From: Candidatus Woesearchaeota archaeon
GTDB taxonomy: Archaea > Nanobdellota > Nanobdellia > Woesearchaeales > WJIZ01
Length of the DNA stretch: 64,000 bases
Assembly: GCA_018303125.1 (NCBI GenBank)
Contig: JAGVYS010000001.1
Location: 5,886-69,885, forward strand
Direction: 5' to 3'
Shown: one piece after another, positions 16,083 through 41,152 of the stretch
How positions within the stretch are numbered: the stretch's first letter is position 1
How the letters are laid out: every line of letters starts with the position of its first letter
Position numbers and translations under genes: made by a program
Notes under the pieces: model-generated
What the model was told of the DNA's origin: nothing
The model's input: the letters and a program-made list of their open reading frames with translations, nothing else
Databases searched by the model: none

Positions 16083-16933
16083 TTTTTCTTTACTCTTCTT
16101 TTTGCCAATGTTTCAATAAGGTAGTTGGTATATTCAAATGCTTCCTTGTTGAACTCTTGGAAATAATCCGAGCCATGCTTGAAATATGTCGCAAATTCCT
16201 CTATGTTCTTATCCTTTATTATGCTATAGAGCTTTGTGCACTCCTCAAGGTATGCTTTGATGGCTTTCAGGCTATACTCATTGTTTATGCATATCTGCGC
16301 ATACAGATATGGGTTCTGGTAGAGAAGCCTGCCGATAACATCCATGTTAAGGCGATATGTTGGGCTGCTGTATTCCTCTCCTTGCATGACATTAACTCCC
16401 ATCCTCTCCCATACATGGCTTAGGGTTATAGAGCTAAAATGTGTTACGGACTGTATAACTGACATCATCTTGTCATGATCTGCTGCAGTGCTTATTTTCA
16501 ATTTTGCACCTTCCTTGAGCAGCATCTTGATTAACCATTCTCTCCATTTCTCCCCTCTTCCAGGGCAGATTACCATGGTCTGGTTTCTGAATGTTGAAAC
16601 ATATGGTCCGAAGACAGGATGAGTTCCTACTACTTCAGCTTTTGAATACTTAAGCATGGCTTCTATCGGCTTTTCCTTTATTGAAGTTACATCCATAAGA
16701 AGGGAAGATTCCTTGATTAATGGCCCTACTTCTCTTATTACATCGCATGTTGCCTCTATTGGGACTGATATGACCACAATGTCTGCATCAGACACTGCTT
16801 TCTTTGGATCATCATTTCTTCCTATTAGCATGACATCGCACTTGTGCCTCTCGAAAAATCTTCCAAGCCATCTTCCCATCTGGCCTTTTCCGCCTATTAT
16901 AGTTGCTTTAATTCTCATTGAAGTTTGCCCCAA
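16079..16933 (-). CDS. tyrA: Prephenate dehydrogenase
   Basis: Rossmann GGKGQMGRWLG plus PDH C-domain; 4-nt overlap with pheA. Confidence 0.8.
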   Translation of the reverse strand: MGQTSMRIKATIIGGKGQMGRWLGRFFERHKCDVMLIGRNDDPKKAVSDADIVVISVPIEATCDVIREVGPLIKESSLLMDVTSIKEKPIEAMLKYSKAEVVGTHPVFGPYVSTFRNQTMVICPGRGEKWREWLIKMLLKEGAKLKISTAADHDKMMSVIQSVTHFSSITLSHVWERMGVNVMQGEEYSSPTYRLNMDVIGRLLYQNPYLYAQICINNEYSLKAIKAYLEECTKLYSIIKDKNIEEFATYFKHGSDYFQEFNKEAFEYTNYLIETLAKRRVKKK

Positions 16934-18176: not shown

Positions 18177-18180
18177 TATT

Positions 18181-19242
18181 CTAAGCTCTCACCAGTCTCT
18201 GCGCAAGAACAGCATCTGCAAGAACTATGTTGGTCATGTGTTCTATCACAGGAACTGCTCTTGGGCATAAGCAAGGGTCATGTCTCCCTTCCACGCTTAT
18301 CTTGGTAGCCTTGCCCTTATCATCAACTGTGCTCTGCTCCTTTGTTATTGAAGAAGGTGCTTTTATGACTGCCCTGAATATTATGTCCTGTCCTGTTGAT
18401 ATTCCCCCAGATATTCCTCCGGCATTGTTTGTGCGCGTGCTTATCTTCCCGGCCTTTGAATAAAAGGAATCGTTGTTCTCAGAACCTTTAAGGCCTGCTG
18501 CGCCAAATCCGGAGCCGAACTCTATGCCCTTTACTGCGCCTATGGAAAGTATGGCTTTTGCAATATCTGCATCAAGCTTGTCAAATACGGGGTCACCTAG
18601 CCCTTGGGGAGGATTCTTCACTACCACTTCAATTATCCCACCTATAGAATCACCTTCTTTCTTGACAGACTCAATCAGCTTCTCCATCTTCTTTGCAGCT
18701 GTCTTGTCAGGGCACCTTACGCTGTTCTTCTCTATTTCGCCATAATCAATTTTTTCTGCCCTTATGTTTCCTACCTGGAGCGTATACGCTATTACTTTTG
18801 TTCCTGTTATTATCTTCTTTGCCACTGCGCCTGCAGCCACCCTGCAAAGAGTCTCCCTTCCTGATGACCTTCCTCCGCCCCTATAATCCCTCATCCCATA
18901 CTTATTCAGGAATGCATAGTCTGCATGCCCTGGCCTGAAGAGGTGCTTTATTTGCTCATATTTGGAGGAATCAGCATCCTTGTTTCTAACAATAATGCAT
19001 ACTGGCGCTCCTGTTGTCTTTTCTTCGAATATCCCTGAAAGTATCTCTATCTCGTCTTTTTCAGTCCTTGGCGAAGTTACGTTGCTCTGTCCGGGCCTTC
19101 TCCTGTCCATCTCGGACTGAATGTCTTCCTTGGAGACTCTAAGCCCTGCTGGAACACCATCTATGACTGTCCCAAGCGCAACTCCATGCGATTCCCCGAA
19201 GGTTGTTACCCTAAAATGCCTTCCGAATGTGTTTCCCATCAT
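18181..19242 (-). CDS. aroC: Chorismate synthase
   Basis: FGESHG...GGRSSGRET signatures. Confidence 0.92.
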   Translation of the reverse strand: MMGNTFGRHFRVTTFGESHGVALGTVIDGVPAGLRVSKEDIQSEMDRRRPGQSNVTSPRTEKDEIEILSGIFEEKTTGAPVCIIVRNKDADSSKYEQIKHLFRPGHADYAFLNKYGMRDYRGGGRSSGRETLCRVAAGAVAKKIITGTKVIAYTLQVGNIRAEKIDYGEIEKNSVRCPDKTAAKKMEKLIESVKKEGDSIGGIIEVVVKNPPQGLGDPVFDKLDADIAKAILSIGAVKGIEFGSGFGAAGLKGSENNDSFYSKAGKISTRTNNAGGISGGISTGQDIIFRAVIKAPSSITKEQSTVDDKGKATKISVEGRHDPCLCPRAVPVIEHMTNIVLADAVLAQRLVRA

Positions 19243-19757
19243 TTCACCTTCGTGATTATCTCGTCTGCAATGACCTCAACTGAGCGCCCCTTTTGGTCTA
19301 TCTCAACATCGGCCGCATCAGAATAAATTCTGGACCTTTCCTTAAAAAGCTTTTCGAATGAGCCTCTCTTGTCTTTTCCAAAAAATGGTATGTCCTGCCA
19401 CTCAATCCTATTGTAAAGTATATCTGGATCTTCCTTTAGGTATACTATCTGGCCCATTAAGGCAATATTATCCCGATTTTCTGGGTCATCAAGCGCTCCT
19501 CCTCCAATGGAGATTATAGAATTTTTTGAATTCGTTATTTTGCCTATTGCCTCTTTCTCAATTTCCCTGAAATATTCCTTGCCTTGCCTCCTGTAAATCT
19601 CCCTGCAAGTTGCCTTCTCTCCATTTTTTCCTAGGTATATCTCCTCGATTATTGAATCTGTATCTATAAAGTATTTTGATAGCCTTTTTGCAAGAATCCT
19701 GCCCAAAGTTGTTTTTCCTGATGCTTTGAATCCTATCAGTATTATATTATTGCCCAT
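19239..19757 (-). CDS. aroK: Shikimate kinase, bacterial AroK/AroL P-loop type
   Basis: Walker A GFKASGKTT, DTD, ISIGGGA, VYL, and a C-terminus that aligns with E. coli AroK. Confidence 0.85.
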   Translation of the reverse strand: MGNNIILIGFKASGKTTLGRILAKRLSKYFIDTDSIIEEIYLGKNGEKATCREIYRRQGKEYFREIEKEAIGKITNSKNSIISIGGGALDDPENRDNIALMGQIVYLKEDPDILYNRIEWQDIPFFGKDKRGSFEKLFKERSRIYSDAADVEIDQKGRSVEVIADEIITKVK

Positions 19758-21207
19758 AAAGAACCTTCTCTATTACTCCCTCCTGATGCCTTATCCCTGT
19801 CCAAAGTTCAAACTGCATTGCTGCCTGGTAGGCAAACATCCTTGCTCCAGATATTGTAACACATCCATTTTGTTTTGCCATTTTTAGCAGCTTTGTTTCC
19901 ATCGGATTGTATATTGCATCGAATACCGTAATGCCTTTAAGGTGCTTTTTCTCTACTGGGGATTTATTTATGTTTGGATGCATTCCAACAGGTGTTGAAT
20001 TTATCAGTATCTCGACATCATCCCAATTTATCTTTGATAGTGACGTGAATTTGCAATTAAGTTTTTTTGCAAGCCTCCTCGCCTTTTCCTCTGTCCTGCT
20101 AGTTATAGTAATTTTCCCGCCTTTAAGTTTTATCCCGTATCCTATTGCCCTTGCTGCGCCACCTGCGCCAATCAATATTGTGCTCTTCCCCTTTATGCTT
20201 ATTTTATCTTCTATTGCACTAATTGCACCGTATGCATCTGTGTTATACCCTCTCATATTTTCTCCATCAACCAATACGGTATTTACTGCACCTATCTTCA
20301 TTGAATCTTCATGCGTGCTATCTAGATAACTCGTTATCTCTTCCTTATAAGGCATAGTTACACTGAATCCTGAGAGCATGCTCCTAAAACTCTTTACAAA
20401 CTCCCCCAGATTGTCTACATGAAAGTTAAGGTAGACTGCATTAAGATTGTGCTTCTTGAAAAGATAGTTATGCACTATGAATCCTTTGCTCTTTGAGACA
20501 GGATTGCCAACAAGGCCGTATATTTTCAGGTTTTTAATTTTAAGCTTGTCTGCCCTGTAGATTCTTTTAAGCTCCTCGCACGGTATCTGTCCGGGAGAGG
20601 TCTCCTTTCCTGTGGCTACTGAACCAAAAGTTAAGTATGCGCCATACGCAAGGTTCAGTATCCTCGATATCTCCCCCTTCTCTCCCATACACAATGCAAT
20701 TATCCTTACCCCTTCTTTTCTTGCCTTCTTTATTATGTCAAGCATGATAAGGTTGTCTGATATGCTTCTTGCCATACACGCTATCTTTATTATGTCCCCT
20801 CCCAAAGATTTCATTTCCTCATATATGGAATGGATATTTTTAGGCACCCCTGAAAAATTATGGTAGGAGATGATTATTTTTGTCCTTCCTTTTCCGCTCA
20901 GAATTCTGTCAATTGCTTTTTTTCCCGAACTCATCTCTATGTCAACATAATCCGCCCCACGAGCAATGCATTCTTGCAGCAATTCTATCCTATTCTTCTC
21001 CTTCCGGCTGAAAATCCCTCCATCTTTCTTTTTCCTACAGGTGAATATTATGGGCAATCTTTTCTTCGAAGATATCTTGCTTATGCCATTTTCTGGAATT
21101 TTCTTTATGCCGTCAAGCCTTATCTCGGCCAAATCAGCACAGTTTTCATTGGATAAAATCTTGATTATCTCATCTATAGAAGAAGCTACAACTGACCTGC
21201 ATATCAC
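19747..21207 (-). CDS. aroDE: Bifunctional 3-dehydroquinate dehydratase (type I) / shikimate dehydrogenase fusion
   Basis: N-terminal half is the type I DHQase TIM barrel; C-terminal half has SDH signatures (GAGGAARA Rossmann). Confidence 0.85.
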   Translation of the reverse strand: MICRSVVASSIDEIIKILSNENCADLAEIRLDGIKKIPENGISKISSKKRLPIIFTCRKKKDGGIFSRKEKNRIELLQECIARGADYVDIEMSSGKKAIDRILSGKGRTKIIISYHNFSGVPKNIHSIYEEMKSLGGDIIKIACMARSISDNLIMLDIIKKARKEGVRIIALCMGEKGEISRILNLAYGAYLTFGSVATGKETSPGQIPCEELKRIYRADKLKIKNLKIYGLVGNPVSKSKGFIVHNYLFKKHNLNAVYLNFHVDNLGEFVKSFRSMLSGFSVTMPYKEEITSYLDSTHEDSMKIGAVNTVLVDGENMRGYNTDAYGAISAIEDKISIKGKSTILIGAGGAARAIGYGIKLKGGKITITSRTEEKARRLAKKLNCKFTSLSKINWDDVEILINSTPVGMHPNINKSPVEKKHLKGITVFDAIYNPMETKLLKMAKQNGCVTISGARMFAYQAAMQFELWTGIRHQEGVIEKVLYGQ

Positions 21208-22283
21208 ATGAGTTCACCTATTGCTCTCTCGGCTATTTTCGAGCCGACCCTTACTCCAATTCTTGAGTTTCCTATCCCTACTGGAAGTACATATTTTACG
21301 CCATCTGAAGTATTCTTCTTGTCTGCTGATGTATTGAGCAATATCTTCTCTACAGGCTGCTTCTTGTAAGGAAGCAATAGCTTTCGTACTAATGAGGTTA
21401 TCCTAGAATAATCATTTTCTTGGACCATGCCAAGGTTTCTTGCCATCGCTGTCTCTGCCAGAATGCCAAGGGCAACAGCCTGCCCATGCTTGATTGAATA
21501 GCCGGAAGCTGATTCTATTGCATGCCCTATAGTATGCCCGAGATTTAGAACTTTCCTCAATGAAGATTCTTTCTCATCCTTCTCAACTATGCTTTTTTTT
21601 ATTGAGGTGCACCAGTAAACGGCTTTAATCAGCGTTTCTTTATCAAGGGAAATTATTTTTTCAACTGAATTTTCCATGAATATGAAGAATTTTTTGTCCA
21701 GGGCTATTGCATGCTTTACCATTTCAACTGTTCCATTTATCATCTCTTCCTTGGGAAGTGTCTTCAGCATATCCATGTCCATATATACTGCGGAAGGCTG
21801 GTAAAATGTCCCTATCATATTTTTCCCATATGGTATGTTTATCCCTGTCTTGCCGCCTATGCTGCTGTCCACCATTGCAAGAAGCGTTGTTGGGTACTGG
21901 ATGTAAGGGATACCCCTCATGTAAGTAGATGCAACATATCCTGTAATATCTCCTACAACCCCTCCTCCCAATGCTACGATAGCTGAATCCCTCCTGAATT
22001 CGAGCGAAAACAACTCATCCTCTATTGCCTCCTTCGTTTTCCTGTTCTTGCTCTTCTCTCCTGCTTCAAAGCTTATCAGTTCTGCCTTAATGCCTGAGCT
22101 GCGAAGCCTTTCCAGATGCGTGCTTCCATGAAATTTCTTTACTTCAGAATCTGTAATAATTGCAACCTTTGAGAATCCCCTGAGTTTTTCCGAAAGTTTA
22201 TGAATGAGCCCGGTGCCGAGCAGAATTGTATAGCTGTAATCTTTCTGCCTTATCCTTACCTTTAGCTCATTGTTGCGTGGCAT
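21204..22283 (-). CDS. aroB: 3-dehydroquinate synthase
   Basis: [14 protein letters not shown]...GGKTGIN..., HAIE... metal ligands. Confidence 0.9.
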
Positions 22284-22284
22284 A

Positions 22285-23295
22285 TCATAATGTCCTTCCT
22301 ATTGCCCTGGATAAGTCCTTCAACTCATGCATAAGCTTGCCGAAATCCTCTGTGCTTATTGTCTGGTCTGCATCAGAAACTGATTTTTCGGGGTGCGTAT
22401 GTACTTCCAGCAGCAGGCCATCTGCACCTGCGGCAACCGCTGCCTTGGCAATAGGATTCACAAGGCTCCTTCTTCCTGTGCCGTGGCTTGGGTCCGCTAT
22501 TACAGGAAGATGTGTAAGTTCCTTCAAAGCAGGAACAGCTGCTATGTCTATAGTGTTTCTTGTGTAATTCTCAAATGTTCTTATGCCTCTCTCGCAAAGT
22601 ATCACTTCCCTATTGCCGCTGGACATGATGTATTCTGCTGCAAGAAGCAATTCATTATAGGTTGCCCACATTCCTCTTTTTAGCAGCACAGGCTTCATTG
22701 TTTTGCCCACTTCCTTAAGAAGAGGGTAGTTCTGCATGTTTCTCGTGCCTATCTGCAGGATATCAGAATATTTTGAAACAATGCCGACGTACCTTGGGTC
22801 CATTACCTCTGTGACTATTGGCAAGCCGGTAGCTTTCCTTACTTTTGCAAGTATTTTCAGACCTTCTTCTCCAAGGCCCTGGAAGTCGTAAGGCCCTGTC
22901 CTTGGCTTGAATGCTCCTCCCCTTAATATCTTTGCTCCATATTTTTTTACCCTCATTCCTATCTCAAGCATCTGCTCTTCAGATTCCACAGAGCATGGCC
23001 CTGCTATAACGATTATTTCTTTCCCGCCAAATACAACATTGCCGACTCTTACTTTGCTTTGGCTCTTTCCCTCTTTGCTGGCAAGCTTGTAAGGCTTTAG
23101 AACCTCTATGACCTTCTCTACCCCGTCCATGGCTGACAGGGAATCCTTATGCAGAACCCTTTCATTCCCTACTATCGCAATTACAGTACGTTCAGTGCCT
23201 ACTATTGGCACAGGCTTAAGCTTCGATGCCTTGACAGCTTCGATTACTTTGTCAGCCTGTTTGGCTGTTGTGCCTTTCTTCATTATTATTATCAT
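22285..23295 (-). CDS. 3-deoxy-7-phosphoheptulonate (DAHP) synthase, class I-beta, with N-terminal ferredoxin-like regulatory domain
   Basis: Residues ~1-70 ([16 protein letters not shown]...[11 protein letters not shown]) align with the T. maritima DAHPS FL domain; the rest is a KDO8PS/DAHPS I-beta barrel (GPCSVES..., ADPSHG). Confidence 0.85.
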
Positions 23296-23353: not shown

Positions 23354-24163
23354 CTACTTCTTCGCTATAGGCTTCATTTCATTCCATGCAAGGTCAAATA
23401 GCGTTGACATAGCCGAGGCAAAAAATGGCGTGTTCACCCATATCCCTACGTCATATGTCGGGTGTATGTCTACGTCATTCATAACCATGAAGATTATTTC
23501 TTCCCTGTCAACTATTATAAAGCGTGCATTTACATCTGTGTTCCTGACCTCGGCAACTGAGCCAAGGTCCTTGATGGCCTGCATGCATTCCTTGGTTGCA
23601 GGTACAGCTATTTTTATGTCCACTCCTCTTTTCTTAAGCTTTTCAAGAGTTGGCTTGAAGCCCTCAACTTTTCTTATGAGGCCCTGAGGAGTAGTCATTA
23701 TTATGACCTGTTCCTCTGCTTCCCTAATCGTCAATTCAAGGTGATTGTAGAGATTGTGCCTTCCCCTAATGCTTCCTGACAAATCAGATGGCTCAACTAA
23801 TTCCACTCCTTGCTTATGCAGGGCATTAAGCTCCTGGATAACGTCCGTGCTCTTCAATTCCTCGAGCCTCTTCATCTGCTCCTTTGCGTCCTTCTGTACA
23901 TTCTTCTTTACTCTCTCGAGCACTTCTGCAGGTTCTACGGCTATGTACTTTATCGGCTTCCCGAGCTTCATAATCACGAACCCTTTTTTCTCAAGGCTCT
24001 CGAGAACATCATAACTCCTAGATCTTGGAACATTTGCAATATCAGAAAGTTCACCTGCAGTAGAAACTCCCCTTGAAAGGAGCGCTGCCCATATTTTTAC
24101 CTCATAGAGATTAAGACCAAAGTACCTGCGCAATTTGCTTAAAAATTCATCTTTTACTATCAT
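23354..24163 (-). CDS. TrmB-family transcriptional regulator (paralog 1), at the head of the aromatic operon
   Basis: N-terminal TrmB wHTH (YEVKIWAALLSRGVSTAGELSDIANVPRSRSYDVLESLEKKGF) plus TrmB C-terminal effector-like domain; GAGGGGG Shine-Dalgarno before the ATG. Confidence 0.75.
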   Translation of the reverse strand: MIVKDEFLSKLRRYFGLNLYEVKIWAALLSRGVSTAGELSDIANVPRSRSYDVLESLEKKGFVIMKLGKPIKYIAVEPAEVLERVKKNVQKDAKEQMKRLEELKSTDVIQELNALHKQGVELVEPSDLSGSIRGRHNLYNHLELTIREAEEQVIIMTTPQGLIRKVEGFKPTLEKLKKRGVDIKIAVPATKECMQAIKDLGSVAEVRNTDVNARFIIVDREEIIFMVMNDVDIHPTYDVGIWVNTPFFASAMSTLFDLAWNEMKPIAKK

Positions 24164-27426: not shown

Positions 27427-27493
27427 AATGGCACAAAACAGAAAATTTATATATAAAAATATTCATTTTTCAACTCTGGAGAGGTAAACGGCA

Positions 27494-28660
27494 ATGAGAA
27501 AGTCCCAATCGGCAATGAATGCGGCAGTGCTAATAACGATTGTTTCTGCCCTGATTATCCTCTATATAATACTGCTCCCTTCAGACAAAAGGCTGGAGCT
27601 TATAGGTGAAAACCGCTCATCATCCGAAACAGGCACAGAAGGGAAGATTCTTGTTGAGGACAAGGAAATAGTGATGGAGCACTTCAACGACGACAGCAAG
27701 GACTATGATAAAATTCCTTCTGTTAACCTCTACACAAAAAAAAGCTCTAAAGAGATATTCGAAGACAGCTCAGTTTATGTCAAAACATCTGTATTTGGAA
27801 AGGAAACAAAGGAGATTCCATTCAGTGTTGATGATGTGGATAATACAGATAATCTGCTTCTTTCATTTTTTGTAAAGAAGCATAGTGGCAGGCTCATGGT
27901 TTCTGTAAATGAGAGAGAAGTTTTCAATAATTATATAGAAAGCATAAACGTAGAGCCTATAAGCATACCTAATAGCATCCTGGCAAAGAGCAATATACTA
28001 AAACTTGAGGCTTCTGGGGTAGGCTTTGCATTCTGGGCAAAGAATGAGTATCTGCTTGAGGAGATTAAGATAACTGCCGACATAACAGATGTTTCTGCAA
28101 GGGGCTCAGAGGTTACTTTTAATGTTCCAAAATCAGAGATAAGCAACATTGACAAAGCAACACTTAGGTTTGTCCCTGAGTGCCAAGAGGGAAAGGTAGG
28201 CATACTTGAAGTTAGCATAAACGGAAAAGGAGTATTCTCTGGTGTGCCTGATTGTGGCATACCCAGGCCTTTGAGTTTTGCCCCTGAGCTTCTTGTTTCT
28301 GGGCCAAATAAGATATCCTTCCATAGCGATGAGGGTAGGTACCTTATAGACCAAATAAAGGTTACAACAGATTTTGACGAGCCGCCATCCTATACTTATT
28401 TCTTTGATGTTGACAATGCCTTGCTTAAGGATATAAACAGCAAAAAGAAAGTAGTCAATCTTACAATGTTCTTTGTGGATGATGAAGAAGACAAAGAAGC
28501 GGAGATTTTCATAAATGATAGAAAAACATTCATGAGAAGGCATAATGACTTCGAGTTCAGCAGAAACATAGGTGAATTCCTTGAAGTAGGGTCTAACTCC
28601 CTAAAAGTCGTGCCTGAGAGAAGGATGGAAGTCAGGAAGCTGGTTGTAAGGGCTGAATAG
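27494..28660 (+). CDS. Signal-anchored extracytoplasmic protein with three internal ~90-aa repeats (hypothetical)
   Basis: N-terminal hydrophobic anchor (AAVLITIVSALIILYIILL); repeat pattern L.F.V...V.N.R..F...G.N.LK recurs three times. Confidence 0.55.
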   Translation: MRKSQSAMNAAVLITIVSALIILYIILLPSDKRLELIGENRSSSETGTEGKILVEDKEIVMEHFNDDSKDYDKIPSVNLYTKKSSKEIFEDSSVYVKTSVFGKETKEIPFSVDDVDNTDNLLLSFFVKKHSGRLMVSVNEREVFNNYIESINVEPISIPNSILAKSNILKLEASGVGFAFWAKNEYLLEEIKITADITDVSARGSEVTFNVPKSEISNIDKATLRFVPECQEGKVGILEVSINGKGVFSGVPDCGIPRPLSFAPELLVSGPNKISFHSDEGRYLIDQIKVTTDFDEPPSYTYFFDVDNALLKDINSKKKVVNLTMFFVDDEEDKEAEIFINDRKTFMRRHNDFEFSRNIGEFLEVGSNSLKVVPERRMEVRKLVVRAE

Positions 28661-28766: not shown

Positions 28767-31400
28767 ATGGTTTTCAAATGGATTAATAACAAACTGGGTG
28801 CTGGTAAAGCTAGGTTTGATAGTTCTGCGCCGGTGGTATGGACAAAGGACAAAGTAGATAGGACAAGGTCTACGATAGGCTCAGAGAGTGCCGAGGCAGA
28901 CAAGTTCAGGTCAAAAGGTGCCTTAACAACTATGCTAATTTTGGCCCTTTTAATAAATTATATTCTGGAAGGGTTCATTCCTGCATTCAGGTTTTCTGGC
29001 TTCGAGTTAAGTTTTTTCATCGGGACAATAGTCTACGGCGATTGGGTCGGAATATACAACCTTTTCCATTTCAACATTTTCTTCCTTCTTGTTGCATTTG
29101 CGGTATTCAATCTGAGAAACGGGAAGCCCCATATTCTCAGAGTATGGCTCGGTCTAATACTTATTGCTTACTTGCTTAGCTCAATACCCATACTCAACAC
29201 CTATATGGGCATAAGGAATTTTATTGAATTAATCATGCTGATAATTTCTGCCATTTACCTTTCCTTCAGTGAGACAACAAAAGAGGATTTCATATCTACT
29301 ATTGTTGTTATGTGGGCTTTCTACAACATTTTCTTCTTCGGCATTACTAGCACTATAGGAGGCCTGACTCATTTCATATTCATCATCCTTTTCTTCATAA
29401 TTTTCTGCATGGGAAACCACTTTGCAGAAGATAGGACTCAGATAAAATGGTGGCTCATAATACTAATCCTGTTTGATTTTTTCCTTCCGCAAATTCTTAA
29501 GGCGGCTTATCCTACTATACCTGTTGACTCCCTGCCATGGCTTACTTTCGGAATGGTAATATTTGGTAATGTCTACAAGCCGTATTGGTTCCCGAGATTT
29601 TTGCTTATAGCGCTGGTTGCATTCTATTTCCTGCAATATGCTTTCGCAGGCAATGATACATTTGCCCAGATAATTGGCCAGAGGGGTGCAGACCAGGAAA
29701 ACATAGCTGAGAGAATGAAGTTCCTAAACCCGAAAGAATGGTTAAACAGGATAACTCAGTGGACAAATCAATCTGTATATTATGCCTCAGGTCAAAACTA
29801 TTATGCGGGAAGGGTGGATGAGAACGCGAAGAAAGACCTTGGAGTGTTTATAGAGGGGATGGACCGTAACGATAAGATATTTTACGACAATGAAAGGATA
29901 ATAATCGATGCAAACCTAAAGGCCCAGAACTTCGTATCTGAAGAGGACGTTGGCTTTGAATCTCTCACCATACAGCTGGATTGCTGGGCGCAACAAAATG
30001 GGAAAAATTTCGCCCATGGAAAGATTTATCCGAAAAACAAGTATGAGATTGACGCATTTGATACTGAGAGCATACAGTGCATATTCGATCCATGGCAGCT
30101 CCAGCTTGGCTCATATGATATAATTATAGAGGCAACATTTAACTTCCAGACTCAGACATACCTCAAAAGATATTTTGTAAATACCCTGCTTTTAGACTCC
30201 CTCAAAAGTAAAAAAGTAATTGAAAAAGACTCAGACATATTGAAACTGAACAAGATAAGTGATACTATGCCTTCTGCAAAGAACAGCGCAGGTCCAGTGG
30301 AAATACGCGTGTCTGATCAGGTTCCAAGCATAATAGAGCTTAGCAATGAGATTGACACAAAGCAGATATTTGGCGTGCAGATTGCCAACAGATGGAGAGG
30401 CGAAATAAAGAGGATAAAGGGATTTGAGTTTTACCTACCGGACGGCATATATCTTGATGAAGGATACTGCACATTTGCTATGGGTATCGATGCTATAAGC
30501 GACAGCAGGTTTGAGGGCTACATCAAATACTCGCTCCAGGAAAAGAACAACATCAGGCTGAGAAACATAAAGAAGGAAATTGTACAGAGATGCTCGCTTG
30601 CCATGAAAAAAGGAGACATTGAAAAAGTCCTTGGGCCTGAGGATGTTACCACAAGGTATATACAATTGAAGACTGATTATGACTACCTTATGAAGGAAAG
30701 CGTAGGAATAACAGTTGCAGAGCCTCCTGGCGTAAACATGAAGATTTTCTCGCCTGACAGGGGCGCTATAGATTCAGGCAGCATGCCACTATGCAAGATA
30801 ACCTATGACAAAAAGGAGTCATTTATCCTATGGCTCCTTGGCGCAGCAGGAGTTGGCCTTAAGAACACTGTTGTTTTCGAGCTTTATGCTGGTGACAGTC
30901 TTGTAGAGCCTATGGTGCAGGAGCAATGTACCGAGGCAAGGTGCGAGCACTTTTACGAAAAAACGTTCCCTAAAGGCACAAAATTGAGATGCAAGGCAAC
31001 AGTGGATACTTCCAGATTTGATGAGCCTGCAGAGTGGCAGGAGCCAGAGGCTTACGTCATTGTGAAAAACAGCGCCCCAGTTGTTAAAAGCGTAGACTAT
31101 CTGAGGGATGCAAATTATGGTCTTACAACGAGAGAGTATGTCAAAGGTGACATTGCCATCTGTTCTGCAAGCGTTGAGGACAGAGATAATGATGAAATAA
31201 TTGCAGAGTTCAGCTTCGAGGGCTTTGATGTTGCCCCGACGACAAAGGAGTGCAGGGGCAACTGCTTCGTTGAAATCCCCACAGGAAGTGCACAAAAGGC
31301 AACAGCTATGACCTGCAAAGTAAGGGTTTTCGACGGAGAGGATTATAGCAAAGAAGTATCAACCAATGCGAATCTGGTTATGTTAGGTGCATCACCTTGA
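28767..31400 (+). CDS. Large polytopic membrane protein (about 8-9 TM in residues ~50-330) with a ~550-aa Cys-rich C-terminal ectodomain (hypothetical)
   Basis: Hydrophobic-helix pattern in the N-terminal third; many Cys in the C-terminal domain; no family recognised. Confidence 0.55.
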   Translation: MVFKWINNKLGAGKARFDSSAPVVWTKDKVDRTRSTIGSESAEADKFRSKGALTTMLILALLINYILEGFIPAFRFSGFELSFFIGTIVYGDWVGIYNLFHFNIFFLLVAFAVFNLRNGKPHILRVWLGLILIAYLLSSIPILNTYMGIRNFIELIMLIISAIYLSFSETTKEDFISTIVVMWAFYNIFFFGITSTIGGLTHFIFIILFFIIFCMGNHFAEDRTQIKWWLIILILFDFFLPQILKAAYPTIPVDSLPWLTFGMVIFGNVYKPYWFPRFLLIALVAFYFLQYAFAGNDTFAQIIGQRGADQENIAERMKFLNPKEWLNRITQWTNQSVYYASGQNYYAGRVDENAKKDLGVFIEGMDRNDKIFYDNERIIIDANLKAQNFVSEEDVGFESLTIQLDCWAQQNGKNFAHGKIYPKNKYEIDAFDTESIQCIFDPWQLQLGSYDIIIEATFNFQTQTYLKRYFVNTLLLDSLKSKKVIEKDSDILKLNKISDTMPSAKNSAGPVEIRVSDQVPSIIELSNEIDTKQIFGVQIANRWRGEIKRIKGFEFYLPDGIYLDEGYCTFAMGIDAISDSRFEGYIKYSLQEKNNIRLRNIKKEIVQRCSLAMKKGDIEKVLGPEDVTTRYIQLKTDYDYLMKESVGITVAEPPGVNMKIFSPDRGAIDSGSMPLCKITYDKKESFILWLLGAAGVGLKNTVVFELYAGDSLVEPMVQEQCTEARCEHFYEKTFPKGTKLRCKATVDTSRFDEPAEWQEPEAYVIVKNSAPVVKSVDYLRDANYGLTTREYVKGDIAICSASVEDRDNDEIIAEFSFEGFDVAPTTKECRGNCFVEIPTGSAQKATAMTCKVRVFDGEDYSKEVSTNANLVMLGASP

Positions 31401-32365
31401 AAAAGTTCTATTTGCTAATAATTGCAGTCATGCTAGTTTCAGCATGCCGGGGCTCAGGAGAGGGTTCTTTGGATGATAAGCTTCAGACAGGGATAGATGG
31501 GCTTACATTGAAATTCCTAAAAAATGGCGTTCCTGAGGTTATAGAAGGAAACAGGCTAAGCATGGCTCTTGAGATAAGGAACGAGGGTTTCAGCTACATT
31601 GAGGATTCCCTTCTTGTCCTATATACAGAGAAGGATGTCCTTAAACTAGAGAAATGGGATTTGCCTGGAAGGCTAAGGGTAAACAGCGACAACAGCCTTT
31701 CGTTTAACTTAAGGGGAAAGACTCTTGCCAATAGAAAGGGAGAGTTCGAGTTGCCAAGCTTCACTGTCAAGGCTGAAAAGATTGATGAATCAAGGAATAA
31801 GATTGAATCAATGGTGGGAATAAACGCCTGCTACAGGTATTATACTATATTCTCTGAGAGCCTCTGCATAGATACAGACCCATTTGGCAGGAAAATTGCA
31901 AGCAAGAGCTGCAAAGCAAAGGACATAAGCTCCTCAAGCCAAGGCGCTCCTGTAGCTATAACTAAAGTGGAGCAGAGCATATTCCCTGCTGAAACTCCAG
32001 ACTCCGCAATAATAGAATTGAATATATATATAGAGAATAAGGGCAAAGGCATTTTGATTGACCCTGAAAAGTATAAGGATGCCTGCCTCGGAAAAGGCCA
32101 AGGATTTAATTCTATATTGCTTACCAAGTTGAAGTTTTCATGGTATGAATACAATTATGAGGGCTTGTCTGATTTTGAATGCTCTCCCAACCCAATTGAG
32201 CAGAGAAAAAAGGAGTACGTTGTAAGGTGCAGGCTGAAGGAAGAAAGTGCAATCCCCTCTGAAACACTGACATTTGAAACTCCTCTCCTTATTGAGCTTT
32301 ATTATGGATATAAGATATCTGATTCCATAAGAATTGATGTGCTTAATGATGAAAGAAGCAACTAA
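31397..32365 (+). CDS. Putative lipoprotein, paralog A of a three-member family
   Basis: Signal peptide plus lipobox-like VSAC; motifs CYRYYT...LCID and SQGAPVAITKVE shared with the next two genes; TTG start overlaps the stop of the upstream gene. Confidence 0.55.
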   Translation: MKKFYLLIIAVMLVSACRGSGEGSLDDKLQTGIDGLTLKFLKNGVPEVIEGNRLSMALEIRNEGFSYIEDSLLVLYTEKDVLKLEKWDLPGRLRVNSDNSLSFNLRGKTLANRKGEFELPSFTVKAEKIDESRNKIESMVGINACYRYYTIFSESLCIDTDPFGRKIASKSCKAKDISSSSQGAPVAITKVEQSIFPAETPDSAIIELNIYIENKGKGILIDPEKYKDACLGKGQGFNSILLTKLKFSWYEYNYEGLSDFECSPNPIEQRKKEYVVRCRLKEESAIPSETLTFETPLLIELYYGYKISDSIRIDVLNDERSN

Positions 32366-32409: not shown

Positions 32410-33360
32410 ATGAGATTCCGCGTCATTTTGGCTATCCTTCTTATATCGCTTACCGTAATATCGTGCAGTCCTAACAGGAACAGAGAGGGGGAAAGGATAT
32501 CTGATAGAGATTATAGGCAAGGCACCAAGGGGCTTGAGCTGGAGTTTATGAGGAATGCTCCGCCGGATAGGGTATACTCTGGAGATGACATGAACTTAAT
32601 TGTTGAGATAAGAAACCTAGGTGCATACCCGACAACAGATTCATTCGATGGAAGATTAGAGGTTTATGGCTATGATGAAAAAGTCTTCCAAGGTGAAAGA
32701 TGGAATGGCGGCCCATTTATCTCGCCTACCTTGCAGGGAAGAAGCCAGTTTTCACCAGAAGGTGGTAGGGAAAACAAGGAGTTCCATGTTGATAAGGTAA
32801 CTACTCCCTTTGGTTCAGAAGCTTTCAAGCAAAGGATAATAGTTGCAGCATGCTACAAGTACAAGACAATAGCACAGCCGTTGGTGTGTATAGACCCTGA
32901 ACCACAGTCTGTTTTTGATGAAAGCAAGGTATGCACAGTAGACAGGAATGGAAAGACTTATGCCCTTGGAAGCCAAGGTGCGCCTGTGGCAGTTACAAGG
33001 GTAGAGGAAGAGATAAGTAGCAGCAACATCCATTTCAGCATAGAAATAAAGAATGTTGGAAGAGGCAAGGTTGTTGATGAGAACGTTAGGAAAGAATGCC
33101 CGCTTGGCCTTGATTTTAATGACGTTGACAGGGTTATGGCCTCAGTTAAGCTTCCCTATGATTCTTCTCCAAAATGCCAGCCAAAGGGGGATTATACTGA
33201 CCCTATAAGGCTGGATGAAAGCGGAAGAGGAACTATATTTTGTACATTCAAGAAGCCGCCATCCAAATCAGCCTTTGAGACGGTTCTGCAGATAACGCTT
33301 GATTATAGGTATGTTGACGAAGTATATAAGGACATTGAAGTCATAAACATTGATAGGTAG
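32410..33360 (+). CDS. Putative lipoprotein, paralog B
   Basis: Signal peptide plus VISC; CYKYKT...VCID, SQGAPVAVTRVE. Confidence 0.55.
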   Translation: MRFRVILAILLISLTVISCSPNRNREGERISDRDYRQGTKGLELEFMRNAPPDRVYSGDDMNLIVEIRNLGAYPTTDSFDGRLEVYGYDEKVFQGERWNGGPFISPTLQGRSQFSPEGGRENKEFHVDKVTTPFGSEAFKQRIIVAACYKYKTIAQPLVCIDPEPQSVFDESKVCTVDRNGKTYALGSQGAPVAVTRVEEEISSSNIHFSIEIKNVGRGKVVDENVRKECPLGLDFNDVDRVMASVKLPYDSSPKCQPKGDYTDPIRLDESGRGTIFCTFKKPPSKSAFETVLQITLDYRYVDEVYKDIEVINIDR

Positions 33361-33443: not shown

Positions 33444-34388
33444 ATGAGAAAAATCCTGATAGTGCTTCTTTTTGTATCGCTTGTCATGACTGCCTGTGAT
33501 GGAAAAGGGCCTAAGGGAAGCATAGAAAATCCTTGGATAGGCGGAACAAAAGGAGTCATTGTTTCTTTTGAGGAGAATGCTCCACAAGCAGAGGTTTTTG
33601 ATGGTGGTAATTACCCGTTTGGTGTTGTAACCAAGCTAAAGAACGAAGGAGAGTATGAGGTTCAAAAAGAGGACGTAAAAGTCACAATATCGGGAATACT
33701 CGCGCAGGAATTCGGAAGGGTTGAAAGCGACCTTGTAAAAGGTCCTGATGATTTACTGCCTGCAAAAAGGAAGGATTCTGAAGGACGGGCAGAGGACTCT
33801 GACCCCGTATTCGTGGATTTTGGTGATTTTACATTTGAGTCAAGCATTGTGGCACAGAATACTTACACTTTAAGGGCAGATGTATGCTATAAGTACCAGA
33901 CAACAGCAAACTCGCTCATATGCGTCCTAAAAGATAACTTAAAGGACAATGATGCAGTCTGTGCAGTAAATGAGCCAAAGGCTGTCTTCAATTCTGGTGC
34001 TCCAGTACAAATTTCTGATTTCAGAGAGTCTGCAAGAGGCAAAAACAAGATTGCGTTCACATTTATAGTCTCACACAAGGGAGCGGGCAAGATATTCAAG
34101 ATGGATTCAGGTTGCAACGTCACATCAAGAGACTTTGAGGACAGAGTTTTTGTGGACGTTTCAACAGGAATAGAAGGCAAGCTTGAGTGCACAGGACTCA
34201 AGGAAAGCACGATGACCAATGGTTCTGTCTCGGGTTTCCTCACATTGTTCTCGAGCCAGAAGGCAGTAAGCTGTTCGCAGGAAGTCTCTACCAATTCTGA
34301 TTACCAAAAGCCTGCAACAATAAAGGCAACATATGATTATTCTGATAATATAGTAACAGAAGTATTGGTAAAACACCAGCTTAATTAG
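33444..34388 (+). CDS. Putative lipoprotein, paralog C
   Basis: Signal peptide plus MTAC; CYKYQT...ICV, SGAPVQISDF. Confidence 0.55.
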   Translation: MRKILIVLLFVSLVMTACDGKGPKGSIENPWIGGTKGVIVSFEENAPQAEVFDGGNYPFGVVTKLKNEGEYEVQKEDVKVTISGILAQEFGRVESDLVKGPDDLLPAKRKDSEGRAEDSDPVFVDFGDFTFESSIVAQNTYTLRADVCYKYQTTANSLICVLKDNLKDNDAVCAVNEPKAVFNSGAPVQISDFRESARGKNKIAFTFIVSHKGAGKIFKMDSGCNVTSRDFEDRVFVDVSTGIEGKLECTGLKESTMTNGSVSGFLTLFSSQKAVSCSQEVSTNSDYQKPATIKATYDYSDNIVTEVLVKHQLN

Positions 34389-38319: not shown

Positions 38320-39390
38320 ATGAACATAGCCATGCTTAAGGGATTTCTAATTCGAAAAAAAATAGAGGCTGCGTTATTTTGTTGCCTTGATTCAGAAATT
38401 GAGAGTAAGAGCATGTCATATTTTTCAGGTTATAATGGGATTGGGTGCCTCATAGTTCCGCGAAGTAATGAGCCTTTCCTTGTAGTGCCTAAAATGGAAT
38501 TTGAAAAGGCAAAGAAATCTGGAAAAGCTTATCTCTGGAAAAAAGGAGAGGGGCTATTTGAAACTGCTGTCAGGATAATGAAGGTGAAAAAGGCACCTAT
38601 GGGGGTTCTTGGACTGGAATGTAGAAATCTCAGCTTTTCTGCTTACAAATTAATTAAAAAATATGTCAAGTGCAGAATAAAGGATATAAGCCAAGATTGC
38701 CTTGCTATAAGGTCAATAAAAAAAGAAGATGAAATAGCCAAGATAAGGATTGCATGCAAAATAGCAGATAAGATATTAATGAGATGCGTAAACTCATTCC
38801 GCTCATTTGGCACAGAAGCAGATGTAGAAAAATTCCTTCATCTGGAAACAGTAAAGAGGGGTTGCAAGCTAGCTTTCAGGCCTATAGTTGCATCTGGAAA
38901 GAACTCTAGCATGCCACACTATGAACCTGCAAACACAAAAATATCTAAGGGTTTCTGTGTAATTGATTTTGGTGTTGAATACGAGGGGTATAATTCAGAC
39001 ATAACTAGGACAATATACTTGGGCAACCCTTCAAGTAAGGAGCAAGAAATCTATAATGCGGTTCTACGTGCAGAGGAAGAGGCAATTAAATCAATAAAAG
39101 TAGGTAACAAATGTTGTCATGCTAATGAAATCGCCTGCAGTGAGCTGGGGAAGCATGCAAAAAGGTTTATCCATGGCCTTGGGCACGGTATAGGATTAAA
39201 CGTTCACGAGCTGCCTAGCATCTCATCAAAATCTGCAGACATATTTGAAGACAGTATAGTATTCACAATAGAACCAGGAGTTTATTTTCCTGGTAAATTT
39301 GGAATTAGGATTGAAGACGATATACTACTTAGAAATGGAAAAGTTGAAATACTGACTAATTCGCCAAGAAACCTAATTGCAAAAGGGTAA
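38320..39390 (+). CDS. M24-family Xaa-Pro peptidase
   Basis: HGLGHGIGLNVHE and IEPGVY pita-bread fold motifs. Confidence 0.8.
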   Translation: MNIAMLKGFLIRKKIEAALFCCLDSEIESKSMSYFSGYNGIGCLIVPRSNEPFLVVPKMEFEKAKKSGKAYLWKKGEGLFETAVRIMKVKKAPMGVLGLECRNLSFSAYKLIKKYVKCRIKDISQDCLAIRSIKKEDEIAKIRIACKIADKILMRCVNSFRSFGTEADVEKFLHLETVKRGCKLAFRPIVASGKNSSMPHYEPANTKISKGFCVIDFGVEYEGYNSDITRTIYLGNPSSKEQEIYNAVLRAEEEAIKSIKVGNKCCHANEIACSELGKHAKRFIHGLGHGIGLNVHELPSISSKSADIFEDSIVFTIEPGVYFPGKFGIRIEDDILLRNGKVEILTNSPRNLIAKG

Positions 39391-39391
39391 A

Positions 39392-41152
39392 ATGGAAAAA
39401 TATAACCTTAAAAGATTCTCAAAAAGCGTCAGCAGATACAAGAGGATACTTGGAGATATAAGGGGAAAGAGCATTTTAGTGGTTCTTGATGTATCCCAAA
39501 AGGAAGCTTTCTACTCTGTTGCGCCACTATCAAGGGCAGTGCATGAAAAGGGAGCCGATATGCACGTGTATGTCATAGGAAGCTCATCTTCCAGTTTGGA
39601 CGTTCTCAAGAGTGTTTGGACAACATACAGCGAGATGAAATCCGGACTTAAGAGCAAAAAGGGATCTGCATTGAGAGATTTCATTAGCAAGGCAGACAAA
39701 AAATGCAATGGTGCCATAGAAGGTATTTTCAGACACCCTGAAAAGTTCGTAAAAGCAAGGGGAAAAGGGTTCGAAGGTTCTTTTAGTCTTCCATATGACA
39801 TCTCCTGGATGAAAGAATATAAGAAAAAGGAACTGCTTAAAACATGCAAAATAATCTGGAAACAAGTCTATAACTTGCAGAATAATGAAAAAGTGGGCAT
39901 AAACTTTGAGCTTGTAGGTTCTGTCTTAGGTTTGCCTATAGAAGACTATCTTGATTCTTTCCAGATAAGCTACAATATGATGCTTTCTGTTAAGTCACAA
40001 GTCACAGGGATGAGCAGCTCCACGCCTCGCAAATCGCAGCTTGATGCTCCTGAGAGGATTTCAGAGCTTAAGGCAACTTTGCTTGGGTGCGAACTTTCAA
40101 AGGGTTCAAAAGAGCCAATCTTTGCCAGTTTCAAAAAGCTTTCTAGTCTGCTAAGCATAAGCAAGATGACAATCTCAAGTGCTGTATTCGGGATACACGG
40201 TAAGGGTTATCCTGGAAAGCATTATTTCGGGGAATGTGTTGGCTACCCATCTCCAAATGGAAAGACAAGGTGGGAAACACCTGGCCAGATGGTATACAAG
40301 CTTGATTTTTATCCGCAAACTGCCCTTGACCCTAGGAAGCCCAGAGCTAGGATAGCATTCACGGAAACAGTCCCTATAGACATTTTCATAAAAACATGCA
40401 AAATAGACTGGCTTAAAATGAAAGAAAGAGATGACAGCATAATCAGGCTGGCTGATAAGTGCCAGTACATCATTGTCGAAGGCAAGAAGTTTGGAAAATA
40501 CAGGACAAGTCTCAAAGTATGGCTGGAAGACAAGGGAAAAAGGTACAGGTTCAGGGGTTCTGATGTTGAGACTAGGAACCTGATAAGCCCGCACTATCCT
40601 AATAAAAAAATAGTTGCAGGCACAATGGCCAATATACCTGGAGGAGAGGCTTTTACCACTCCAAAATATGTCAAGGGACAGTTTATAGGGGATGTTGTGA
40701 TAAGCCTTGACCAGAGTTATAAGCTCAATGCTAAAGATCCTTTTGTCATAAACTGCTATGGTAACCGCTATAAGGTAATAAGGGAACCTAAAATCATTGG
40801 GATGAAATTCAAGGAAAAGAAAAAGCAGGCATGGAAAAGGATATTGAACCAGGAAAAAAACAAGGCAGTGCCAATGAGCATTGTTAATCTTCAGAAAGAA
40901 AACTTTAATAACATAGGCGAATTCGCGATAAATACGAATCCAAAAGCAGAACTATGCAATTACCTCATTGTTAACGAGAAGATAGCAAACATGATTCATA
41001 TTGCGCTTGGTTCTGGTTTTGAAGCTGAACGCTCAACAACATACCATACTGATATTGTCATAGATGCGCCACGTCAGCAGTTGGACATATACGGTGTAGA
41101 TAATAATGGGAAAAAGTACTGGATACACAAGAAAGGCAAGTTTGTTATTTAA
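39392..41152 (+). CDS. M29-like aminopeptidase paralog with a long N-terminal extension
   Basis: C-terminal half shares NIPGGEAFTTP / IHIALGSGF / YHTDIVID with the downstream M29-like gene; ATG at 39392 follows the stop of the M24 gene. Confidence 0.45.
   Translation: MEKYNLKRFSKSVSRYKRILGDIRGKSILVVLDVSQKEAFYSVAPLSRAVHEKGADMHVYVIGSSSSSLDVLKSVWTTYSEMKSGLKSKKGSALRDFISKADKKCNGAIEGIFRHPEKFVKARGKGFEGSFSLPYDISWMKEYKKKELLKTCKIIWKQVYNLQNNEKVGINFELVGSVLGLPIEDYLDSFQISYNMMLSVKSQVTGMSSSTPRKSQLDAPERISELKATLLGCELSKGSKEPIFASFKKLSSLLSISKMTISSAVFGIHGKGYPGKHYFGECVGYPSPNGKTRWETPGQMVYKLDFYPQTALDPRKPRARIAFTETVPIDIFIKTCKIDWLKMKERDDSIIRLADKCQYIIVEGKKFGKYRTSLKVWLEDKGKRYRFRGSDVETRNLISPHYPNKKIVAGTMANIPGGEAFTTPKYVKGQFIGDVVISLDQSYKLNAKDPFVINCYGNRYKVIREPKIIGMKFKEKKKQAWKRILNQEKNKAVPMSIVNLQKENFNNIGEFAINTNPKAELCNYLIVNEKIANMIHIALGSGFEAERSTTYHTDIVIDAPRQQLDIYGVDNNGKKYWIHKKGKFVI

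Follow-up and report, generated by a model that had tools for sequence, protein, structure and literature searches.

A nine-helix membrane protein with an exchangeable distal module, encoded in a conserved five-gene block of Woesearchaeota, as candidate base of an envelope complex for contact with other cells

Several envelope-spanning machines of monoderm bacteria carry membrane-anchored hydrolases, such as the VirB1-like proteins PrgK, TraG, TcpG and CwlT of Gram-positive conjugation and the SpoIID/M/P engulfment complex. Their tethered SLT, NlpC/P60, M23 or amidase modules face outward and open the peptidoglycan locally, often together with a polytopic partner. In Woesearchaeota and Pacearchaeota large extracellular murein-lytic-transglycosylase proteins have been described (fam00969; 'Module 98', 51 families; Castelle et al., 2021; Vigneron et al., 2022), and it was proposed that these archaea attach to or attack bacteria by means of extracellular murein hydrolases (PMC8204110, PMC9723730, PMC12352652).

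The gene studied here, B, is part of a block of five genes (A to E) in a window of 64,000 nucleotides, i.e. the whole stretch of DNA that was analysed. Its family and the proteins described by Castelle and Vigneron are found in the same lineages, carry SLT/GH23 and other peptidoglycan hydrolases on extracellular proteins rich in PKD/Ig domains, and share a proposed role in the attachment to or attack on bacterial walls. The latter proteins, however, are described as secreted or surface-bound enzymes of great size, reaching about 3,000 aa, whereas the B family is set apart from their descriptions by a base of nine transmembrane (TM) helices, a core of two beta-sandwiches and a fixed five-gene block, and the member in the window is without a hydrolase. 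With the monoderm machines the B orthologs have the set of catalytic domains in common, but no relation in sequence or fold to B was found, and at the loci examined the block contains no ATPase, other energising gene or secretion gene (VirB4/VirD4). Because the producer is an archaeon without peptidoglycan, the target wall must be that of another organism. B also resembles the csg protein of Haloferax volcanii (PDB 7ptp) and archaeal PKD/Ig surface proteins in its tandem Ig-like ectodomain and its lipid or membrane anchoring, and both 7ptp_A and archaeal PKD domains are among its fold matches. Csg, however, is anchored by a C-terminal lipid and B by an N-terminal nine-TM domain with conserved polar residues. 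Literature searches returned no description of an A-E cluster. The genes of the block are as follows.

27494 to 28660, forward strand: gene A, coding for a bitopic protein of 388 aa whose ectodomain is beta-rich (ORF; N-terminus MRKSQSAMNAAVLITIV)
28767 to 31400, forward strand: gene B, an 877-aa ORF with an ATG start
31397 to 32365, forward strand: gene C, a predicted lipoprotein of 322 aa (ORF; lipobox VSAC, Cys17)
32410 to 33360, forward strand: gene D, a predicted lipoprotein of 316 aa, paralog of C and E (ORF, BLASTP; lipobox VISC, Cys19)
33444 to 34388, forward strand: gene E, a predicted lipoprotein of 314 aa, paralog of C and D (ORF, BLASTP, synteny; lipobox MTAC, Cys18)

The 877-aa frame of B was present as the preliminary description had claimed. 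It is preceded by a Shine-Dalgarno-like GAGGT 8-12 nt 5' of the start; the form deposited at NCBI (hypothetical protein J4401_00240, Candidatus Woesearchaeota archaeon) starts 22 codons downstream and has 855 aa. Searches with the Pfam and NCBIfam models gave nothing at E<=1, in agreement with the earlier assignment of B to no known family. The protein can be divided into the following parts.

28767 to 28922, forward strand: residues 1-52 of B, basic N-terminal tail, predicted to be cytoplasmic (low model confidence)
28923 to 29654, forward strand: residues 53-296, membrane domain with nine TM helices and no known fold relative
29655 to 29837, forward strand: residues 297-357, hydrophilic helical linker with a conserved junction motif (model secondary structure, conservation)
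29838 to 30731, forward strand: residues 358-655, conserved core ectodomain of two beta-sandwiches, the family signature (model, conservation)
30732 to 31400, forward strand: residues 656-877 and stop codon, variable distal module with two PKD-like Ig domains (fold comparison)

The N-terminal tail contains 11 Lys and Arg residues within 50 aa, differs in sequence and length from ortholog to ortholog, and has a pLDDT below 50 at residues 1-44 of the full-length model. The N-terminal multi-TM module that had been postulated for B was recovered: about eight hydrophobic peaks were seen between residues 49 and 297, and the AlphaFold model of residues 40-350 was wholly helical (pLDDT 86.3) and could be fitted with nine TM helices. 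The positive-inside counts agree with nine helices, an inner N-terminus and an outer C-terminus. Together with the presence of 12 invariant cysteines, two or four to a domain, these counts argue for an extracellular ectodomain, which would leave the N-terminus in the cytoplasm and the entire beta-rich part outside the cell. Family-wide conserved positions in the membrane domain are D/E68, F76, G78, Y135, H202, D237-F-F and P257, all located in its extracellular half and none of them an arginine. The near-invariance of the outward-facing D/E68, Y135, H202 and D237 suggests, somewhat less firmly, that this domain may be more than an anchor; it might be a conduit, or handle lipid or glycan at the outer leaflet. 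B thus adds a confidently modelled nine-TM domain without a solved structural relative.

The linker enters the ectodomain through the junction motif (A340, G342, Y345, Y346, G348 and V350). In the core (pLDDT 80-93), on which nearly all profile matches centre, sandwich 1 (about 358-472) contains C406/C438 and sandwich 2 (about 511-651) C568/C609, with a short helical segment between them; its fold matches are generic Ig, FN3 and MG domains. G359, C406, C438, F458, P510, G545, P558, C568, C609 and Y638 are invariant across 52 diverse members at about 22% identity. The ectodomain had been called Cys-rich in the preliminary description, with two pair-like contexts. Both contexts exist (C721/C726 and C829/C833), and 12 of the 13 cysteines of B fall in residues 331-877, but the excess itself (12/547, or 2.2%, vs 1.31% in the long ORFs of the window; binomial p=0.06) lies within chance, and 'Cys-rich' as a statistical claim was dropped. 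All 12 ectodomain cysteines are invariant in every ortholog having the region; judged from the alignments, it is the conservation of the cysteines rather than their number that is non-random. B would rise from the membrane as a stalk made up of some four Ig-sized domains; in the full-length model (pTM 0.46) the inter-domain geometry is unreliable. The earlier reading of a multi-TM module joined to a large Cys-bearing ectodomain, unassigned to a family, is on the whole borne out.

The distal module has eight conserved cysteines (676, 721, 726, 742, 799, 829, 833 and 850), and its two PKD-like domains are stapled by disulfides. The C-terminal region of B has a PKD-type beta-sandwich fold, and since the Pfam PKD model does not match at E<=1 its PKD membership is structural only. 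PKD-like domains are common in archaeal S-layer and surface proteins, so that a purely structural role would suit this B just as well. In the Pfam and NCBIfam searches no peptidoglycan hydrolase domain (SLT/GH23, NlpC/P60, Amidase_2/3, M23, GH73) was detected in B itself; this B might therefore be directed at an archaeal host, at a polymer or at another subunit next to it. About one fifth of the orthologs have peptidoglycan hydrolases at the distal position, of five or six unrelated catalytic types. Directly past the core, and each within the same gene cluster, P0051 has SLT (648-744) and Amidase_3 (825-1008), P0035 has M23 (823-922) and P0138 has NlpC/P60 (637-731). A weak match was obtained in P0052, and beyond these four proteins there are about 20 further hydrolase bearers. 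Sixty further members yielded SLT (12), NlpC/P60 (3), Amidase_2 (2), M23 (1) and glucosaminidase (1), besides fn3 and PKD; 52 others yielded SLT (5, at the permissive E<=1), Amidase_3 (1) and M23 (1). The distal module of the family is swappable between orthologs.

The B family numbers 1,905 representatives at E<=1e-3, of which 430 also reach E<=1e-30 (conserved core, window protein residues about 150-654), and all named members and genome loci belong to Woesearchaeota or Nanoarchaeota. A second protein search with a broad alignment gave the same 10 proteins again, and the locus search with alignment A1 gave only five close loci. Representatives of about 360 aa that match the core only were considered as standalone modules and rejected, being truncated gene calls without signal peptides. 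The order Pelota-A-B-C-D-E-RFC-small was found in the window and in L001, L002, L009 and L010/L011; the A-B-C-D-E block was also present in L012 and L013/L014, with flanks absent or unconfirmed, and L008 shows Pelota-A-B up to the contig end. The order is kept even where members are only 22-24% identical, and neither the linkage of the five genes nor their position on the chromosome changes down to about 22% identity.

Gene A, which has no match in Pfam or NCBIfam, follows a TATA-like AT-rich stretch at about 27443-27459, and an A ortholog of 390-400 aa is always found directly upstream of B. At its N-terminus it looks like a protein with a class III (prepilin-type) signal, or else with a signal anchor. 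The motif (K/R)K(S/G/A)Q(S/G)x(M/L)NAA(V/I)L, conserved in five full-length orthologs, fits the class III pattern in its basic residues, in [G/A/S] at -1 (break before Q) and in the hydrophobic helix; a plain signal anchor is equally possible. The start of C overlaps the stop of B (TTGA). C is a paralog of D (BLASTP E=1e-23) and aligns with E (hhalign E=3e-26), and E closes the block, convergent with RFC-small. C, D and E have no Pfam match. They are predicted to be lipid-anchored: each has a signal peptide and a lipobox of the type [LVI][ASTVI][GAS]C, the +1 cysteine is invariant in 31 of 31 homologs, and a strict lipobox pattern is found in 25 of the 31, the remainder having G at -1. D has six further cysteines that are conserved across 31 homologs. 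The order of motifs in the B core and in C/D/E looks collinear (FNFxT/CYxYxT, NGPV/GAPV, NxWxG/NxGxG and a terminal YxY), but homology between them is without statistical support (hhalign E=0.01-0.06; with 8.0 bits the real sequences score no better by HMM than reversed decoys with 7.1 bits).

We propose, with a probability of roughly 0.45, that B forms both the polytopic base in the membrane and the stalk of an envelope complex of five proteins, A-E, specific to the tiny, symbiotic DPANN archaea of the Woesearchaeota/Pacearchaeota type, the tip of which engages other cells. The synteny suggests that A-E associate physically, and the complex would serve contact with other cells. The nine-TM base of B would carry the two-sandwich stalk followed by the exchangeable tip, and the lipid-anchored paralogs C, D and E and the pilin-like A would assemble around it. 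The distal module would reach the envelope of another cell, where a PKD-like tip, as in the B of the window, may bind and the hydrolase tips of orthologs may cut the bacterial cell wall. The published murein-hydrolase proposal lends independent support to a role in cell contact. Woesearchaeota and Pacearchaeota belong to the most abundant uncultured archaea; they have no known host, and whether some of them live on bacteria is debated. A positionally fixed five-gene module would offer a tangible candidate, at the molecular level, for their contact apparatus. The type of tip (PKD-like binder vs five or six kinds of murein hydrolase) would be a marker, readable from sequence, of a binding or a wall-cutting lifestyle, and A-E together with D/E68, H202 and D237 are defined targets for follow-up. 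A bolder form of the proposal, which we think unlikely, is that A-E form an unrecognised DPANN-specific host-contact machine, in which a new-fold nine-TM conduit bears a stalk stapled by disulfides, the three lipoproteins make a collar and a pilin-like subunit is added. With its interchangeable tip the machine would dock onto the envelope of the partner (a bacterium in the case of a murein hydrolase) or breach it enzymatically, and material would be taken up through the membrane domain or beside it. In that case the type of tip would read out the type of host in uncultured Woesearchaeota and Pacearchaeota.

A somewhat doubtful alternative is that B, C, D, E and perhaps A make up an S-layer-like wall or pseudo-periplasmic scaffold of the cell itself, with B as integral anchor, C/D/E as lipid-anchored lattice subunits and the hydrolase tips as add-ons in some lineages. 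An essential housekeeping structure would be expected to be encoded, like this block, throughout the lineage and at a fixed position. The three paralogous lipoproteins have conserved disulfides, and the strings of Ig-like sandwiches recall the lipid-anchored S-layer glycoprotein of Haloferax volcanii. This likeness, however, is generic (TM-score 0.11 to 7ptp, sequence E=2.6), a lattice subunit has no need of a nine-TM domain with invariant polar residues, and the repeated, independent gain of hydrolases of five or six types in a single place points to a distal end that faces a foreign wall. Such a layer is compatible with our proposal, and if it were only an S-layer-type scaffold the block would still identify the envelope proteins of the clade. 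We regard as improbable that B acts in the membrane as an enzyme on lipid-linked glycans or polymers, i.e. as a Wzy/EpsG-like polymerase or an O-antigen-ligase-like or GT-C-like transferase, with the ectodomain as a module for chain length or substrate handling. Like such enzymes, B has a polytopic domain with conserved acidic, His and Tyr residues on the side of the outer leaflet, and one family member (P0049) is named 'EpsG family protein' by NCBI; no member of the family, though, matches the EpsG model (PF14897) at E<=1, another member goes by the name 'ABC transporter permease', and EpsG, Wzy_C and O-antigen ligase were rejected as assignments. STT3/AglB (GT-C), a fold that the preliminary description had put forward for testing, was likewise rejected: B matches neither the STT3 Pfam model nor the GT-C membrane fold, and on reading through the sequence WWD(YG) was absent, as had been stated before, the sole WW lying in KWWLII (residues 227-232).

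Equally improbable is a transporter or channel, in which the nine-TM domain would translocate solutes, lipids or ions, with the ectodomain and C/D/E capturing the substrate in the manner of the lipoprotein binding proteins of ABC importers. A polytopic domain encoded beside three lipoproteins, a nearly invariant mid-membrane D237, a nearly invariant H202 and the need of DPANN cells for import of lipids and metabolites (general knowledge; PMC8204110) would agree with it. The block, however, has no energising partner, C/D/E are beta-sandwich proteins rather than periplasmic-binding-protein folds, and the hydrolase tips would be left unexplained. No transporter family (ABC permease, MFS, RND, MatE and others) was matched by sequence or by fold, which upholds the earlier statement on this point. 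That B matures or sorts the lipoproteins C/D/E, like Lgt/AliA, a signal peptidase or a sortase, is very improbable, even though it is encoded directly upstream of three lipobox proteins and translationally coupled to them and its conserved polar residues lie at the outer leaflet, the site of action of such enzymes. AliA, by its description, lacks a large ectodomain, is marked by a conserved pair of arginines in its pocket (histidines in AliB) and already occurs in DPANN as archaeal lipidation enzyme (PMC12462473). The B membrane domain has no conserved arginine, and on this residue pattern AliA/AliB (arCOG02177/02178) do not fit. A profile match to presenilin/GxGD intramembrane aspartyl proteases (E=0.006) was compositional, with the catalytic Asp pair (YD in TM6, GxGD in TM7) unaligned. 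Moreover, processing has no need of a 580-aa stalk with swappable tips.

One element is peculiar to the B of the window.

30816 to 30860, forward strand: residues 684-698 of B, hydrophobic Gly/Ala-rich insertion SFILWLLGAAGVGLK inside the distal module (hydropathy, model, ortholog comparison)

It coincides with a hydropathy peak at residues 686-705 and has a pLDDT below 50 at 692-697. The insertion is missing in seven of the eight orthologs that have the region, and the eighth is not hydrophobic there. A tenth TM helix at 686-705 was rejected, being absent from the orthologs and placing conserved disulfide-type domains in the cytoplasm. In the bolder form of our proposal this loop of the tip could be a membrane-inserting element.

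The open reading frame of B, the 877-aa membrane protein under study, was confirmed at 28767..31400 (+); it opens with ATG and is preceded by a GAGGT motif 8-12 nt upstream of the start. An identical protein is on deposit as 'hypothetical protein J4401_00240 [Candidatus Woesearchaeota archaeon]' with a start 22 codons later, and taken by itself B is a hypothetical protein of putative function. In the preliminary description it figured as a multi-spanning protein with a Cys-rich ectodomain, its family not recognised. This observation was borne out: about 8 hydropathy peaks fall within aa 49-297, 12 of the 13 cysteines lie beyond aa 330, and both cysteine contexts quoted there were found. By count 'Cys-rich' was overstated (2.2% vs 1.31% background, p=0.06), but the cysteines are non-random, since all 12 of the ectodomain are strictly conserved in each ortholog possessing the region, and C406, C438, C568 and C609 do not vary across 52 family members (identity about 22%). 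The cautious reading given at that time was supported but incomplete.

The full-length AlphaFold2 model reached a pLDDT of 72 (80-93 in the ectodomain) and a membrane-only model built from 79 sequences a pLDDT of 86.3 and a pTM of 0.78.

Segments of B in the models
aa 1-52, basic tail, modelled with low confidence
aa 53-296, helical membrane domain
aa 297-357, linker, hydrophilic and helical
aa 358-472 and 511-651, two beta-sandwiches (the core)
aa 656-871, two more beta-sandwiches

Lysine and arginine are concentrated in the N-terminal tail and in the loops 117-122, 168-174, 215-227 and 271-277. By the positive-inside rule this clustering fits nine transmembrane helices, the chain starting inside the cell and ending outside it. 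The same rule, together with the conserved cysteine pairs, suggests that the beta-rich part is extracellular. The positions of the membrane domain that are conserved family-wide (D/E68, F76, G78, Y135, H202, D237-F-F and P257) all lie in its extracellular half. All membership tests on this domain failed and it matched no known family or fold; the C-terminal domains, which appear PKD-like by structure, are the only part of B assignable to a named group.

B is the second of five co-directional genes, in the order A-B-C-D-E, and its stop overlaps the start of C (TTGA).

Genes accompanying B in the window
27494-28660 (+), A, 388 aa, a single N-terminal hydrophobic helix with a beta-rich remainder
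31397-32365 (+), C, 322 aa, paralog of D and E
32410-33360 (+), D, 316 aa, paralog of C and E
33444-34388 (+), E, 314 aa, paralog of C and D

The order Pelota(-), A to E, RFC-small(-) was also found in the related loci L001 and L002, where B is 43% identical to that of the window, and in L009, where B (P0050) is only 22-24% identical; in L008 Pelota-A-B is present and the contig ends at B (P0025). The block is a deeply conserved core block and not a mobile island. In one related genome (L001, 13545-14417, +) an additional gene for a 290-aa membrane protein (DUF6159/DUF7544) stands between E and RFC-small, so insertions at the 3' end of the block are occasionally tolerated.

The mutual paralogy of C, D and E was evident from BLASTP (1e-23 and 2e-13) and from hhalign of C against E (3e-26). 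A cysteine preceded by G, A or S ends the N-terminal hydrophobic segment in 31/31 of their homologs, which have six further conserved cysteines in common; from these residues the three are predicted to be lipoproteins, each with some three disulfides. The enzyme that lipidates archaeal lipoproteins, AliA, is present in DPANN (PMC12462473). The N-terminal sequence of A, (K/R)K(S/G/A)Q(S/G)x(M/L)NAA(V/I)L and then the hydrophobic helix (27494-27590, +), is conserved in five full-length orthologs and is similar to the class III (prepilin-type) signal peptides of archaea; by eye, about three repeats of a beta-rich unit of ~100 aa can be seen in A. In profile-profile comparison the core of B was collinear with C/D/E over 172-266 columns with the signature motifs aligned, at E values of only 0.01-0.06, and the scores of B members against a C/D/E HMM did not exceed those of reversed decoys. 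In L010 a gene for a DsbD_TM (CcdA-like) thiol-disulfide membrane protein (16490-17206, -) lies about 2 kb beyond the block on its downstream side, which bears on the possible oxidation or isomerisation of the many conserved extracellular cysteines; no equivalent was seen adjoining the block in the window.

Beyond the conserved core the orthologs vary, and many have a peptidoglycan hydrolase there.

Distal modules of three relatives of B
P0051, SLT 648-744 and Amidase_3 825-1008
P0035, Peptidase_M23 823-922
P0138, NlpC/P60 637-731

All three lie within an A-B-C-D-E block, that of P0051 also with the Pelota and RFC-small flanks. Among the first 52 members SLT was found in 5 (at a permissive threshold of E<=1) and Amidase_3 and M23 in 1 each; among 60 further members (E<=1e-3) there were 12 SLT, 3 NlpC/P60, 2 Amidase_2, 1 M23 and 1 glucosaminidase, and some others had fn3 or PKD domains. 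On these counts roughly one fifth of this family of membrane-anchored platforms has gained a catalytic domain at this site, drawn from five or six unrelated types that all act on bacterial murein. The distal module of the window protein has no hydrolase and consists instead of two PKD-like domains with eight conserved cysteines. Within it a Gly/Ala-rich hydrophobic insertion, SFILWLLGAAGVGLK (aa 684-698; 30816-30860, +), is unique to this protein, being missing in 7 orthologs and replaced by a polar insert in an eighth. The TM-like hydropathy peak at this site is false; the loop might be a membrane-interacting element.

We tentatively propose, with a probability of about 0.45, that B is a contact platform. 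Its ectodomain would form a stalk with the length of some four Ig domains, with which A and C/D/E would assemble, to judge from synteny and translational coupling. The distal module would touch the envelope of another cell, binding it in this organism and cutting its murein in hydrolase-bearing lineages. This group of archaea is not known to synthesise murein. Extracellular murein hydrolases have already been proposed for the attachment of Woese/Pacearchaeota to bacteria or for attack on them (PMC8204110, PMC9723730, PMC12352652). More speculatively, the 9-TM domain, in which D/E68, Y135, H202 and D237 are near-invariant and outward-facing, could have an activity of its own, as a conduit or in lipid or glycan handling, and not be a mere anchor. 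A structural, S-layer-like scaffold, with which much of the evidence is compatible and alongside which the contact platform can hold, is somewhat unlikely as the explanation. That B is a glycan or lipid enzyme is improbable, and that it is a transporter equally so. A lipoprotein-maturation enzyme is very improbable, as B does not have the AliA-type arginines.

In its way of working B is likest to proteins that, tethered to a membrane, present adhesive or wall-lytic modules, and the large extracellular SLT proteins known from these archaeal groups are its nearest described relatives in biology. It belongs to no named family, and literature searches did not find the five-gene block or the B family described. 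Surface proteins of DPANN that have modules for adhesion or murein hydrolysis are already known; new are the polytopic base, the core and the fixed set of operon partners. It is doubtful that the system represents a host-contact machine of a truly new type. The family, the fixed operon and the swappable murein-hydrolase tip together make B a concrete candidate, open to testing, for the means by which uncultured Woese/Pacearchaeota engage with other cells. The automated NCBI names of two relatives, 'EpsG family protein' (P0049) and 'ABC transporter permease' (P0020), contradict each other and are probably spurious, since Pfam and NCBIfam scans back neither.

As a whole the window is an ordinary stretch of the chromosome of a DPANN archaeon, on which lie SecY, PheRS, a shikimate operon, acetyl-CoA synthetase, Pelota, RFC-small, TyrRS, an intein-containing MCM and PolD DP2. 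The MCM helicase gene (1137 aa; 53784-57197, +) is interrupted within the P-loop domain by its intein (Intein_splicing 337-793), which includes a homing endonuclease of the LAGLIDADG type (LAGLIDADG_3 572-657). A 591-aa ORF (39377-41152, +) that comes next after the M24 peptidase gene gave no Pfam match at E<=1e-3; it may likewise be a conserved unknown specific to the lineage, because a 589-aa gene of L002, likewise devoid of Pfam matches and cut by the locus end, starts at the same relative position. The shikimate-pathway operon (16079-23295, -) includes EPSP synthase and a fusion of dehydroquinase with shikimate dehydrogenase, and DAHP synthase and DHQ synthase are found in L001 (1-3297). 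Its presence and synteny among relatives suggest that this small-genome archaeon has more biosynthetic capacity than the most reduced DPANN. Two TrmB-family transcriptional regulators are encoded (23354-24163, -; 50421-51233, -), the first upstream of the acetyl-CoA synthetase, Pelota and A-E region; in several related loci a TrmB gene lies near Pelota, with or without the intervening acetyl-CoA synthetase. The SecY gene has directly downstream of it, with a 1-nt overlap, a gene for an EMC3/TMCO1-like (Oxa1/YidC-superfamily) insertase, and the two (8929-11144, +) are a compact membrane-protein biogenesis pair.
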